Shown in pieces: positions 782 through 46,735 of a stretch of DNA of 64,000 bases. Under the pieces are notes generated by a model, which was not told where the DNA came from, did not search any database, and was given only the letters and a program-made list of their open reading frames with translations. The DNA lies in the NCBI GenBank assembly GCA_905178155.1, contig CAJINV010000001.1, positions 10,658,311 to 10,722,310 of the forward strand. Reading direction: 5' to 3'. The position numbers and the translations under genes were made by a program. This DNA comes from Amoebophrya sp. A120 (taxonomy: Eukaryota > Protista > Dinoflagellata). How positions within the stretch are numbered: position 1 is the first letter of the stretch; every line of letters starts with the position of its first letter.

Positions 782-3700
782 TCACGTCTGCGCCCCCGCT
801 CCCGCCCTCTCCCGTGCAGCATCTGCCGCCGCCTTTTGCCGCAGCGCGATGAGCAACTGCGTGCGGATGCGCTTCATCCGTTTTTGCCGGGACATCTGCA
901 TGTGGTGGTGTACCATCGACGCCACCTCGTCCCCTTGCCGGTCCTCGTCTCGGGCTGTCTGGGACGGTCGTGCCCCCGCGGAGGCGTCTTGCACCCCCGC
1001 TGGGGCCGCCGAACCGGTTGCTTTCTCCGCGTTGGCCGCAGACGTGGCGGAGCGAAACCCCTCGGGATACGTTTTCATCAGCTCCTCAACAATGTCGACG
1101 ATCTCCTGCCTGTACCAAGACTGGTTCGCCTGTTGCGCGGCCTCGCTCCCCTGCAGCGCCCGCCAGATTGGGCCCCAGGCCACCGGGTCCCGCGCGGGCC
1201 AAGCGGGATTCAAAGGGAACACAAACCCGTCCGCGACGCGGTCGGCCAAAAAGGCCCGCAACTCCGGCTCGGTGACCGAAAACCAGGACTTGCTTTTCGT
1301 CGGCTTGTATGCTCTGCAAAAATATCGCACTCGTATTAATTGCAATGATGCATGACAAATCTTGTTTGTTAGCCAAATCAGCATTACAAACTTCATTTTT
1401 CCTTCTGAGAAGATTTGTATTGCGATTTATACTAGTGCGATGCTTTTGCAATGCATAGCTTGGTCCTGCTCGGTGGGCCGCCTTGATGTGACGTTGGTAT
1501 CCCCGATGCGGGAGCTGTAGTCCCAGCGGCAGAAGTCTTCGCGCCGTCCGTGATGTTGTCTCCTCCATCTTTGTCCCAGATCACGAGATACTGGTCGTCT
1601 TGCTCCTGCGGAAACAGAAAGTTAAAGCACTCGGCGCCGTGCCGTACGGCGCCGCACTCCGCCATTGCGGCCACCGTCTTCGCGATGATGTCGATGGATG
1701 TCGGGTCCCCGAAGCCGTAGGTGGGCAGCCCCGGATTGAAGTTCCCCTGTTCGCAAGCGGCGGTCAAAACCTGCAGCCAGTTGGAGGTCCAGCTCTTGCA
1801 CGTGCGCCCGGCCGCGTCGTCCGCCGCCTGCGTTTCGAGTAGCTGCCGCGTTTGCTGCAGACACCACTTCTGCAGCTCCACCTGCTTGGCAGGCAAAGCG
1901 TCGTAGCTGATGGGACCCCGAGAAGCGATCAAGAGAGTGTCAAAGTCGCTCACCACCGGGTGGACACACGCTTCTTCATAGGCGACGAGCAATCCCAAGG
2001 GGTTCAGCGGGTCCGCCAGGTCATGCTGCAAAACGCAGGCACTGTGCGAGTGTTTTTTGATCATCTACGTCTTCATCACGCATCAGACTCAGATACGTCG
2101 TATGTAAACACAACATGTTTGATCGTGAATATCGCAAGACAGGAAAGTCTCGACGAATCGAAATATAAAAAAAAAAGCGACACAGTCACAGAAACCCAAA
2201 AGAGAGATTGTGAAACTCGAACTTCAAAGGAAAAACCGTGATTTTCACATAAGACTATCATATCTTACCGCGGCAGTCCTTGCGGGTCGCGCACTGCATG
2301 GAGGTTCATATCCATGAAAGCCGGCTCCGATACTCTGCCCGTCTCCCAACCCAGCATGGGGCTGATGTCGTGTCGCTCTATGTATACCTCCCGCAACAGC
2401 AGCTCCGGCACGTCGAGTCCATACGCGCTGGAGCACTCGATATAGTCGTCCAAATGGCGAACCAAGGCCATCACGTCGACAGTAGCTGATTTGTCTTTGT
2501 CAGAAGAGGGGGAGGTGGACCCCGCCCCTGCATTGTTGCCCGAGGCATTCGTGTCCTTCGACGCGCCCGTGTCTTTATTATTCCCCCCCGCAGAAGAGGA
2601 ACTTCCTCCCGCCGGCCGGAACGCCTTGGCGAGCTTGGCGGCGAAATCGGGCTCGTGAAGGAGCGCGTGCATGGCGGACTCCGCCGCAGCCCGGTCCTCC
2701 GCGGACCGGTAAAAAATGTGGATGCGGCTCCGCGGCGGCGCGGGCTCGACGCGGGCTTTGTGCGCGTTGTCAGAGATCTGGATGAAGGGCACAAACCCGC
2801 TCAGCCGATTTTTCTTCGCGCTCTTGCCCTTCACGTTCAGGCCCTTGCCCACGCCCACGCGCCCCAGCATCTTCGCGATCGAGTCCCGGCTGCAGGGACG
2901 GTAGATCACGATCCACTCCGTCTTCGGTTCGCTGGCCGGCACCGCTTTGTCGACCGGGTCAAACCCGGTGCCTCGCAGAGAGGGCTCATACTTGTAGCAC
3001 CCCTTGGGCCCCTTGGTCCCGCCGCACGCGTAGAAATCCGCGAGCAGCCGCCGCGGGTCGGTCAGGTAGTGTTGCGCGTGCAGGTTTTCCAAGGACCCTA
3101 GTCTGCCCTCGAAGTCACTCCGATCCAACCGTAAAAGCAGCGACTCCGTGCTCGAGCGAATCGAAGCGGCGCGCTTCGCGTCCTTCTCTAACAGCGCGCG
3201 CTCGCCGAACAACCCGCCGGACGTGTAGGTTGCCACGTCGCTGGAGACCCCGTCCTCCGCCTGGATTGAAGCGACACACTCGCCCTGAAGATGTGTTTTT
3301 GTTTTATCGGCAACGGTTGAAATTAGAACGAGTAAAAAAATGCTGCTCTGTAGCTTGCTTGACCATGAAAACCTATGCCACAAAAGAAATTCAAGTGCTG
3401 AAAAAAAAAACGGCTCTACCTTTTCCACTATGTACATGCAGTCTGCCACCCCTCCTTGGCGCAGGACAGAGTCCCCTGCGGAATAGCTTTCCCGCTGCAA
3501 GGCCCCGGCGATGGCCGCAACCTCCTTTTCGTTGCACGTTTCGAACAAGTGACAGCCTCGGACCAGCTCTTCTCGCACATTCCGTTCGTGTATGACCGTG
3601 CGAAAGTCGTCCGCGTGCAGCATGTACGTTCTGCACTGTGTCAGTGCTTTAACGCTAATTTTTCTCTTGCTCTCTGGTCGAAGCAGCGCGCGCTCGCCGA

Positions 3701-44089: not shown

Positions 44090-46735
44090 TCAGTCTTCCT
44101 CCATCTTCTCCTCGACCTGGTCGAACTCGGAAAACATGAACTCCTGGTTGTATTCCATCAGGAACTGGGTGCTGCGCTTCACGTCCACGAAGAGCGAGTA
44201 CACTTTGCGGATGTCCGGCACGTCCACCTCCTGGCCCTTGCGCTTCAAGCACACCAGGTTGGCCACACTGATCAAGTGGATGGCGTATCGCAGCGTGCTC
44301 TCCATCCCGATCTTGGTCAGCAGCTCCTTAGCAGGCTCCGTCATCTCGACGTCTTCCTCCTCTGTTGTGGCGGTATTGTAGCAGCAATTTACGACTTTGA
44401 CTTCATTTGAAAAATAAATCATGTAGTTCACGGTCACGCACAGCTGCAACAGAAATAAAGCCGAATTCCTCATCAACAGTTCTAGTGCTCAAAAAGCAAA
44501 AACGAACCTGCTCGGATGTCGAGAATTTTCCGGATTTCTCGCTCGCTGTAGGGCTCCGTGCTGATAATCAGTGCGCGGTCCAGCAAATCCAGCGGGATTC
44601 CGTGAGGGGATTTGTAATCCGTGCCGCGGATTTTGGTAATACCTAGAGAATATGACGGTCGTGTGCCAGTTGATTTTTACTGTGCAGAACAAATAGGCCA
44701 AAACAGGATCATTTTTGTAAAAGCTGTTTTTGAGAAATGAAAATGATATCATTATGGGCGAGAAAAAAAAATTCTACAACATATATTACCTCTGTTCGTC
44801 GCCATGATGACCACGGGACTGGTTTCCATTTCCAGTGCCCTGTTCAGGAAGGAGAAGCACTCGATGTCCAGCATGTGCACCTCGTCGATGAACAACACGC
44901 CCGGCACGATCTCGGCCTTGCCCTCCTCCCGCCACTCCGCGACCTTGGCGTCGATCTGCTCACGCACCTCCTGCTTGATCTCACCGGTATCGCCGGCGAA
45001 GAGGGCGAGGAAACCCTGCGATCGACTGTTGATCACATCGATCTCGTGCAGGTTCACCGTGTGCACGACCTCCTTCCGCTTCTGCAGCTCGCCGTCCGGG
45101 CACTGCACAAACCTGTTTTTGATTTTTGTTGTGGTAGGTTGGTTCGACTTGATCGTGTGTCGCAGCATCTTTCCAAGACCGACAGCCGACCTTAGGATCT
45201 CGCCAAACTTTAGGTTGCGTCCATCAAAATTGTGCAACATCTAGTTCAAATTATGGCAGAAGAAAACGCACCTTGTTTGCGGTCCCATGGCGTCGAAGTC
45301 CTTGCTGCGCGCGAAAGATTTTCCGAGTAGAGAAATCTTTCCGGATGATTTATCGATCGTGACTACATCTCCCGCTTGAATGTCGTCCTTTTGTACCTGC
45401 TCGATCATCTTCTGACCGAGGTCGTATCTGTGAAATTTTGGAAATGAGAATTTTTACGCCCATCTAAAACAAAAAGCACTGCAGCACAGAATCGAAAGAA
45501 AAACCTCAAAATTTACTCTGAGCATCACGCAACAAAAAACTCGTTACATTGTCTCCATTTCTGTCGTCTTCAGTGTCATTTTTCCGAACGTTGGCGCGCG
45601 TCCCTCGGCCTGCTCGATTTCTATTTCCACTACCTCACCCTCGATGATTTCTGCTTCTTCCCGGATTCTCACTCCGATCGACTGCCGAAACGCCTGGGTT
45701 AGCGCCTCCGTCTTGGACATTTCCAACGAAAAAATTTCACTACCTGCTATGCAGGTAAAAGGGGTGTCGTCGCCGAGCGCCTTTGCCATACCCATGGCTA
45801 TTGCCGTTTTACCCTGTAGTTTTTTAATAAACGATGTTCTTGTACTAGATTTGGTTGATCGTATTGTGAATTTCGTTTCTACCGGCAGAAAAGATAATCT
45901 ATCAATATGCACGTGGGTTCGGAATTCAAGCAAAGACCACAGAAGCAAATCAGTACCGTTCCGGGTTGACCAGCGATTAGGATGGCACGGCCTGCAATAC
46001 GCCCTTCGTTGATCATGGATAAAATGACACCGGCCGCTCGTCGGGCTTTGTATCAAATGCAAATATGTCTGGGTCTGGAAGATTGCAAGATTTGTCATGG
46101 ACATTTTGCATGACCTGTGATGTCTGCGATGTATGCCCCAGCATCACAAATTTTTTGCGGGTATCTTGATGCCTATCCCGCATGACAGATGCCCTCTCCG
46201 CCGGGCAAAAACTGGACGCCTCTTGCTGCTCATGCAATACAGATTTTTGTAGATTCCAAAAATAGCATCACAAGTTGCATTCTTCCAGACCCAGACATTT
46301 TTGCAATTCATACTTTGTTCTGCCCGACCATACCCTGGGAGACCAGCCGCGCATCCAAGCTGTATCCTGAGTAAAAACGTACCCACACCAGAGTCAGGAT
46401 GAGGATTTTGCAACACAAACCTAGCAGCTTTGTGAGTCACGCATGACAAGTTGCACTATGCAGTGTAGTGCAGGTTAGCAAGTGCAGCCGCATCACAGAT
46501 TCATCTGCTCATCCTGTTCACAGCATCACAAATTCCGAAACACGATTGGAAATGGCTCTCATGGGGATGCGCATTACAAGTCTTCCTGTCTTTACAAATC
46601 TGCATTACAACTCTGGTGTGGGTACGTTTTTACTCAGGATAAGCTGTCGTCAAGACCCAAACCACGAATGTGCGAGTGCGCGCCAATCCGCTCGAGGCGG
46701 TGCACGTCTTTGACGTCTGCTATGCGAGGCTCCAT
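44090..46735 (-). CDS. RUVBL2: RuvB-like 2 (Reptin) AAA+ ATPase
   Basis: [22 protein letters not shown] (Walker A), [33 protein letters not shown] and LRYAIHLI. Two introners and five GT-AG introns. Confidence 0.97.
46051..46312. mobile_element. Introner family B (262 bp)
   Basis: TIR TATnAAnTGCAAA(T/A)ATGTCTGGGTCTGGAAGA. Direct repeat CTTTG. Removal gives [14 protein letters not shown]. Confidence 0.96.
46363..46641. mobile_element. Introner family A (279 bp)
   Basis: Perfect 32-bp TIR TATCCTGAGTAAAAACGTACCCACACCAGAGT. Direct repeat AGCTG. Removal gives [16 protein letters not shown]. Confidence 0.96.

Follow-up and report, generated by a model that had tools for sequence, protein, structure and literature searches.

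Elements with inverted repeats in the window and their host genes

We analysed a 64,000-nt stretch of the genome of the dinoflagellate Amoebophrya sp. A120 (assembly GCA_905178155.1, contig CAJINV010000001.1, positions 10,658,311 to 10,722,310 of the forward strand; hereafter, the window). Thirteen elements with terminal inverted repeats (TIRs) interrupt exons of its genes; they are transposon-derived introns of this organism and are exactly absent from spliced transcript contigs. The elements are 150–356 bp long with a GC content of 34–48%. All 26 element ends carry the same letters (TAT at the start, ATA at the end), and 20–25 of the 25 terminal nucleotides are complementary between the two ends. 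A 5-bp direct repeat flanks every element, perfect in 11 cases and matching in four of five letters at 31805 and 37484, and no other repeat length from 2 to 10 bp fitted any of the 13. The number, starts, sizes, ends and repeats given in a preliminary description of the window were all reproduced; it had proposed at least four TIR families, and we counted five by eye. All elements sit in minus-strand host genes, and repeat letters are given on the coding strand throughout.

Seven of the elements lie in a protein kinase gene with a weak Nudix-like C-terminal match (29329–34432, minus strand, its start taken from the sequence), which also contains five GT-AG introns. They are located at 29942–30208 (267 bp, TGCAAA-ATGTCTGGGTCTGG family, repeat CATGA), 30314–30620 (307 bp, TATGGA..GTCAG family, repeat TCACC), 30706–31009 (304 bp, GAAAAA..CCCCCC family, repeat GAAGT), 31227–31466 (240 bp, repeat TTTTC), 31805–32057 (253 bp, repeat CGCGA upstream and CCCGA downstream) and, within the kinase domain, 32631–32986 (356 bp, repeat GTGGA) and 33797–34108 (312 bp, repeat CCGCG, with the Pkinase match on the next exon). 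An H+-translocating pyrophosphatase gene (35835–39736, minus strand, measured between the contig's 5' end and the point where the last coding exon stops) has GT-AG introns and two elements, one in its 3' part at 35910–36192 (283 bp, repeat ATGTG) and one at 37484–37794 (311 bp, repeat GTCCA upstream and GTCCG downstream). The RuvBL2 gene (44090–46736, minus strand) has five GT-AG introns and two elements, at 46051–46312 (262 bp, repeat CAAAG) and 46363–46641 (279 bp, repeat CAGCT). The remaining two are found at 1308–1457 (150 bp, TIR TATGC(T/A)(C/T)TGCAAAA, repeat CAAGC), in an exon without a Pfam match, and at 11599–11878 (280 bp, TATCCTGAGTAAAAAC family, repeat CGACT), where retention would bring in four in-frame stops.

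The elements stood out clearly from the background of the window. A scan for TAT..ATA pairs within 1 kb with a repeat of at least 4/5 and a TIR of at least 11/16 returned 14 pairs, namely the 13 elements and a weak pair at 39707, versus 0–2 pairs per shuffle in 20 shuffles. Unbiased scans of the window yielded no further strong element. In predicted folds, 19–30 of the first 30 nt paired in the TIR register in all 13 elements, with fold z-scores of −6.7 for the element at 31805 and −7.2 for that at 46363. The elements are also highly repeated: in a DNA-type sequencing run (X5), depth over element bins ranged from thousands to 294,000 versus about 47 in unique DNA. Being short, bounded by TIRs and a target site duplication (TSD), and devoid of a transposase open reading frame (ORF), they have the characteristics seen in miniature inverted-repeat transposable elements (MITEs). 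No Rfam family was matched in the window, and the TIR pattern had no matches in viral contigs.

Retention would shift the frame in seven cases, and the other six elements, whose lengths are multiples of three, would introduce 1–9 in-frame stops; therefore, retention would break the gene in all 13. The earlier statement that the frame is restored by removing the element plus one repeat held in this refined form. Sliding the junction over the repeat never gave GT-AG or GC-AG in any of the 13 sets of registers on the coding strand, AT-AC was readable only at 29942, and the repeats TCACC and TTTTC contain no G, all as previously described. A GT..AG label at 30308, next to the element at 30314, is antisense, lying on the non-coding strand, and was rejected.

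Absence of the elements from transcript contigs

Four runs from one sample (X1–X4), guessed to be RNA, were treated as transcripts since their contigs lack GT-AG introns. Removal was covered at 11 of the 13 sites (all but 1308 and 11599), seven by contig joints and four by length arithmetic. The element plus 5 nt was missing from spliced contigs at all 11 covered sites and the GT-AG introns were gone as well, in agreement with the earlier claim that each element leaves together with one copy of its repeat.

In the kinase gene, the joints skip 272, 312, 309, 245, 258, 361 and 317 nt in order of position, which equals the element plus 5 nt in each of the seven cases. The first four skips were present in all four runs, those at 31805 (joint 31799–32058) and 32631 in three, and that at 33797 in two; per run, X1 and X2 had all seven, X3 six and X4 four. 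One 3023-nt contig combined all seven element skips with removal of the five GT-AG introns. Three of the joints were flagged as having unknown letters between the joined parts, but judged by the record coordinates there is no room for additional letters. For the four further elements, gaps between contig pieces equalled the exon lengths expected with the element plus 5 nt removed: 70 nt at 35910 (skip 288), 140 nt at 37484 (skip 316) and 1013 nt for the two RuvBL2 elements, where the exon sum and the contig gap were identical. By the same arithmetic, a 45-nt exon between the two RuvBL2 elements (46313–46362) is kept in the transcript.

Public protein records agree with these contigs. Over 107 aa, a RuvBL2 exon matched an Amoebophrya sp. 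A120 protein in NCBI at 100% identity, and the N-terminus of the public A120 RuvBL2 model matched the element-free translation of the window, both elements being already omitted from the annotated protein (P0006). On the DNA side, run X5 contained element-bearing junction contigs at a depth of 36–47 with no differing letters, including both mismatched repeats. Two raw-read runs (X8 and X9) gave 19 and five aligned reads, 23 of the 24 aligning only partly, and were uninformative for these genes.

Position of the cut

The two mismatched repeats made it possible to bound the cut. At 31805, the joint allows three ambiguous letters and the contigs carry the upstream letter at repeat position 2; therefore, the transcript keeps at least two letters of the upstream copy. 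At 37484, the first letter of a contig piece is the downstream copy's G (repeat position 5), and therefore at most four letters of the upstream copy are kept. The downstream letter at 37484 gives Arg, a residue that is aligned in solved pyrophosphatases. At these two informative sites, the cut does not coincide with the TAT ends. Assuming a single register, it probably falls inside the 5-bp duplication, the 5' cut lying 1–3 nt ahead of TAT and the 3' cut 2–4 nt beyond ATA. A cut inside the duplication means that the end letters of the intron are target DNA, which would explain why there is no conserved splice dinucleotide.

Mismatched repeats elsewhere may help to narrow the register. Among 33 further cases from a second assembly (see below), mismatch polarity leaned weakly towards a cut after position 2. 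An element at L068:8540–8779 in that assembly was considered as a further register-bounding case and rejected, as it lies inside an ordinary intron. Because mismatched copies remove the sliding ambiguity, and such copies flank 58 of 354 elements of the second assembly (about one-sixth), A120 reads can map the register genome-wide.

Related elements in a second assembly

In a metagenome collection, 146 stretches of a single further assembly matched the TIR pattern, and 142 of these loci were examined (590 kb, overlapping). Elements in them were up to 92% identical to those of the window. The best database match of an RPB1 exon from this assembly was at 86%, and the 120 matches listed included no identical record. 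Counting overlapping loci, near-full-length copies numbered 5–139 for 12 of the 13 window elements and two for the remaining one. Without requiring a repeat, we collected 465 de-duplicated TAT..ATA pairs; the 5-bp repeat was perfect in 296 of them and 4/5 in 58. Perfect repeats of 4, 6, 7 and 8 bp occurred in two, zero, zero and two pairs, respectively. Other apparent 4-bp repeats proved to be palindromes within the TIRs and were dropped. The motif TAT-N7-AAA, published for A120, fitted 599 of 708 ends in this assembly and 21 of 26 in the window. When pairs of one TIR family (family B) were found by their TIR core alone, TAT was present at both ends in 142 of 156, a count partly seeded by the pattern.

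The elements are found in both orientations relative to the gene. A codon model gave a confident call of the coding strand for 189 of 373 elements; when applied to the window, nine of 13 calls were above threshold and all nine were right, whereas three of the four weak calls were wrong, and the training set overlapped some host exons. In the five largest clusters, the two orientations were represented 26:26, 16:13, 4:12, 9:5 and 5:5. Two pairs of window elements (46051/29942 and 30314/37484) likewise belong to the same family in opposite orientation, and all four were removed.

In the second assembly, GT-AG was readable at any register in eight of 149 coding insertions versus 3.8% (about six) by chance. 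Of 160 dinucleotide tests around the repeat, none survived correction (best p = 0.007), and there was no AG preference at repeat positions 3–4 (17 versus 14.4). The elements thus lack the GT/GC-AG ends of U2-type introns: none of the 13 in the window had them, and the nine readable cases among 149 in the second assembly are close to the chance level. Nor do they fit the U12 minor class: AT-AC was readable in one of 13, its register lies outside the bound of two to four repeat letters, and minor small nuclear RNAs (snRNAs) are reported absent.

The gene for RPB1 lies in locus L068 (1343–9800). Six of the seven elements examined interrupt its coding sequence, one of them 972 bp long, and the seventh lies within an ordinary GT intron. 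With each element plus 5 nt removed, RPB1 aligned without gaps to its closest protein, and RuvBL2 orthologues agree; therefore, the ancestral site had a single copy of the 5-mer, in keeping with the preliminary description of the repeats as target duplications. Window flanks did not overlap the second-assembly loci and no empty site was seen at the DNA level; colinearity of the proteins is the closest substitute.

A separate observation concerned the reading frame at the insertion sites. Of the 147 confident coding insertions in the second assembly, 77 have a 5-bp repeat whose first letter falls on codon position 3 (p = 6e-6), as do eight of the 13 window elements. This bias was not explained by any clear target preference; C was mildly over-represented at position 1 (56 versus 39).

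Origin of the TIR families

The TIR families share an internal motif. GCAT[GC]ACA occurred 37 times in the window elements, with copies in all 13, versus once in the remaining 60.4 kb, and it was present in 315 of 354 second-assembly elements. In its relaxed form, the commonest spacing was 31–33 bp (31 being the top value), with 16 and 47–48 bp also common. The array may represent binding sites of the transposase. Together with the uniform 5-bp repeat and the common ends, it supports the earlier proposal that one transposase lineage gave rise to all families.

An autonomous partner with the same ends was sought among longer pairs. Six distinct TAT..ATA pairs exceeded 600 bp in the 142 loci, one of them 6.2 kb long and spanning other elements. 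A 1104-bp element (L017, 505–1608) with TAT ends lies between perfect 5-bp repeats; about 850 bp of it is unrelated DNA of repetitive character, and its 238-aa frame had no Pfam match. Another of 1031 bp (L061, 5769–6799) apparently contains a further element nested within it.

Other features of the window

Every modelled gene of the window lies on the minus strand. Twelve ordinary GT-AG introns (119–196 nt) have weak 5' ends, only one of them with GTAAGT, and their 3' ends are often A-rich without a pyrimidine tract (e.g., 33368–33538 and 45113–45271). These features fit the reported absence of U1.

Long minus-strand ORFs matched a cNMP-binding domain (2265–4265), a prenyltransferase (55206–56735) and glycosyltransferase 15 (59841–60743). 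A 934-bp duplication at 99.9% identity (18152–19085 and 23537–24470) lies in ORFs that both match the DOT1 histone methyltransferase. The stretches 51100–52089 and 54071–55087 are diverged paralogues (69–75% identity), probably from an older tandem gene duplication. Tandem repeats in coding regions were found at 41194–41442 and 48567–49038, with offsets of about 99 and 87 bp, the latter region having a weak PKA RIIa match.

Mechanism of removal

The explanation we favour, tentatively and with slightly less than even confidence, is that a modified spliceosome removes the elements by a cut in the duplication, at a set distance from the terminal stem. Initially, a TIR transposase that probably belongs to the integrase-like IS3EU/Ginger type would insert non-autonomous copies in either orientation with a 5-bp duplication; the duplication and the orientations were observed directly, and the ends and the shared motif array point to the enzyme. 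The TIRs would then pair in the pre-mRNA, as the folds predict, placing the two ends side by side, after which the element and 5 nt would be removed and the ancestral protein restored; it is this loss that the cDNA contigs display. We consider these three steps very probably correct. The cuts would, with fair probability, fall 1–3 nt ahead of TAT at the 5' side and 2–4 nt beyond ATA at the 3' side. Catalysis would be carried out by the U2/U5/U6 core without U1, for which, judging from the literature, the chances are little better than even. A modified spliceosome is favoured because of the precedent of Fritillaria borealis (PMC11282704) and the missing U1 in A120 (Farhat et al. 2021, PMC7789003), and we regard it as slightly likelier than a separate endonuclease and ligase.

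Several points weigh against this explanation. Known spliceosome chemistry is difficult to reconcile with removal that is fully indifferent to orientation and end letters. The register rests on two sites from different families, in cDNA contigs from a single sample; the bound from each site is one-sided, and the registers may differ between them. Mismatch polarity was weak in the 33 further cases, the upstream copy having A/T in 11:4 cases at positions 3–5 and 6:5 at positions 1–2. No transposase gene was found in the 0.59 Mb of loci or in the long ORFs of the window. The spliceosomal introns of Fritillaria still prefer AG-AC/AG-AT ends (PMC11282704), and Farhat et al. argue against general mobilisation by a transposase (PMC7789003). 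Finally, the combination of hairpin and direct repeats typifies skipping during reverse transcription (PMC8240250), so that cDNA junctions could mark where the enzyme slipped rather than where the RNA was cut.

The strongest rival is independent of the spliceosome: a structure-specific endonuclease would cut both sides of the TIR stem at a fixed spacing and an RNA ligase would join the exons, a route also suspected in non-conventional introns of euglenids. We see this as a real possibility, though one to be held with some doubt. It would account for the lack of both end-letter preference and orientation bias, and both ends would be held in the long predicted stem. The cut is set back from the stem, like the required 3-nt and 5-nt spacers of Euglena (PMC12501133), and euglenid introns leave as full-length circles (PMC11282704). 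However, A120 is reported to keep 83 of 89 spliceosomal proteins along with U2, U4, U5 and U6, with U1 undetected and minor snRNAs absent, which points to a changed spliceosome, and the same layout of inverted and direct repeats occurs in 15% of its canonical introns (PMC7789003). No candidate enzyme came to light, no search aimed at one having been made. In its broadest form, namely a sequence-blind, spliceosome-free pathway that measures from the hairpin base, cuts in the duplication and serves about 30,000 A120 introns including those of core genes, the idea is possible and rather doubtful. The preliminary description had concluded that a second splicing chemistry runs alongside GT-AG splicing; this does not follow, as a changed spliceosome like that of Fritillaria fits the same data.

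It is unlikely that a tolerant spliceosome reads a short symmetric TIR sequence, for example TAT at +4 to +6 against the ACAGAGA box of U6, the stem being incidental. A cut after repeat letter 2 would put TAT at exactly these positions and lies within our bounds; they correspond to the position of CAG in Euglena (PMC12501133) and to a stretch that U6 reads (PMC13326754). When single mismatches at positions 3–5 were non-synonymous, the upstream copy had A/T in all five cases where the letter class differs. Nevertheless, TAT was retained equally at coding-like and non-coding-like sites (83/89 versus 28/31, p = 0.69), and six coding-like copies had a non-TAT end. Equal retention and altered ends therefore make TAT look like a signature of the transposase and not a proven splice signal. 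Of the earlier claim that the TIR stem and the TAT ends direct removal, the part on the stem was strengthened, since orientation independence fits guidance by a symmetric TIR, and a role for TAT in splicing was unsupported.

Two artefactual or indirect explanations appear far less probable. Reverse transcriptase may slip over a hairpin with direct repeats and produce false introns (falsitrons), the elements being retained in cells. The anatomy matches this artefact (PMC8240250), the RNA evidence consists of cDNA contigs of one sample, and our literature search found no direct RNA sequencing study of Amoebophrya. Against this, retention of any of the 13 elements breaks its gene, including RuvBL2, for which one A120 record was present among the 120 matches listed, and six elements interrupt the RPB1 coding sequence in the second assembly; a skipping artefact cannot supply working RuvBL2 or RPB1. 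Seven skips together in one contig also speak against slippage, which we consider very improbable. Least probable of all is excision from DNA in part of the life cycle, as with the internal eliminated sequences of ciliates: transposon ends and a duplication would permit precise excision, but element-bearing junctions in X5 had a depth (36–47) equal to that of unique sequence (about 47), and no skip of an element plus 5 nt was among the 15 joints listed of 1144, which would leave room for a minor form.

Tens of thousands of Amoebophrya introns are removed without splice signals, and the real position of the cut has been masked because junctions slide over the repeats. Together, orientation independence, a fixed register and the motif array would provide concrete rules for the mechanism, the transposase and the comparison with Euglena. 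If excision is indeed sequence-blind and scarless, it would explain how transposons could harmlessly invade genes for RNA polymerase and RuvBL2, and any insertion of one integrase-like lineage, in any frame or orientation, would become a scarless intron. The added value of the present analysis is modest: it offers an inexpensive means of fixing the register, and it supports a single transposase lineage.

Comparison with published introners and known systems

The class to which the elements belong is established, as the preliminary description acknowledged, although it understated how much is in print for A120: the TAT ends and the repeat length have been published as well (PMC7789003, PMC12130899). 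Farhat et al. (2021, PMC7789003) reported that more than 60% of A120 introns are non-canonical and that 29,850 are repeated, with inverted repeats of 8–20 nt or more whose motif is TAT, then N7 and a run of three or more As, direct repeats of 3–5 nt, hairpins and a mean length of 240 nt. No splice dinucleotide dominated, no end pair exceeding 3%, and an alternative splicing mechanism was proposed; the legend of their Fig. S19 gives an example with a 5-bp direct repeat. The elements described here share the traits of these introners: a TAT inverted repeat, a direct repeat within 3–5 nt, repetition in the genome, and absence from transcripts with ends other than GT-AG. In that article, repeats vary in length and position and the border is left open, whereas here the repeat is uniformly 5 bp and the cut is bounded inside it; the occurrence of both orientations and the internal 8-mer array common to the families are also additions. 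Gozashti et al. (2025, PMC12130899) described A120 families as mostly TIR DNA elements of 150–320 bp with mostly non-canonical ends and a superfamily given mostly as 'Unknown', and the TSDs called automatically there vary between 2 and 6 bp, in contrast to the uniform 5 bp here. Family 38 of that study, about 808 bp long, contains integrase-like ORFs and is annotated '5-bp TSD, TA/TA Termini'. The 8-mer array, the orientation result and the mismatch bound were not found in print in the open-access text searched, supplementary figures being outside it.

Among transposons, IS3EU, GingerRoot and IS481EU resemble the elements in having TA..TA or TNT..AYA termini and short TIRs, and they encode an integrase-like transposase (PMC10045372). 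The TSD is usually 6 bp in IS3EU and GingerRoot, both with TA..TA ends, 4–5 bp in Ginger2, and 4, 15 or 25 bp in IS481EU, compared to 5 bp here (PMC10045372). The TA..TA ends point to IS3EU/GingerRoot, yet the TSD is 5 and not 6 bp (a perfect 6-bp repeat in none of 465 pairs, a perfect 5-bp repeat in 296), and the elements were therefore not assigned to that group.

Among introns, those of Fritillaria borealis likewise combine TIRs and TSDs outside the GT-AG rule (PMC11282704, PMC13326754). They are, however, spliceosomal, prefer AG-AC/AG-AT ends and occur with a conserved U1, whereas no end preference was seen here and U1 is undetected in A120. Euglenid introns resemble the elements in having a TIR stem set back from the ends, sliding direct repeats, coexistence with GT-AG introns and a suspected MITE origin (PMC12501133, PMC11282704). 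They differ in their CAG/CTG core, in spacers of 3 and 5–6 nt and in a purine after the 3' junction, as shown by genetics (PMC12501133). Their signature N3-CDG...CHG-N5-6 does not describe the present elements, which have TAT/ATA ends and a total spacer of 5 nt, and the resemblance is functional only. Within that resemblance, the elements are symmetric, show no preference for end letters and are probably cut at some remove from the stem, which suggests that distance may be measured from the hairpin, as in Euglena.

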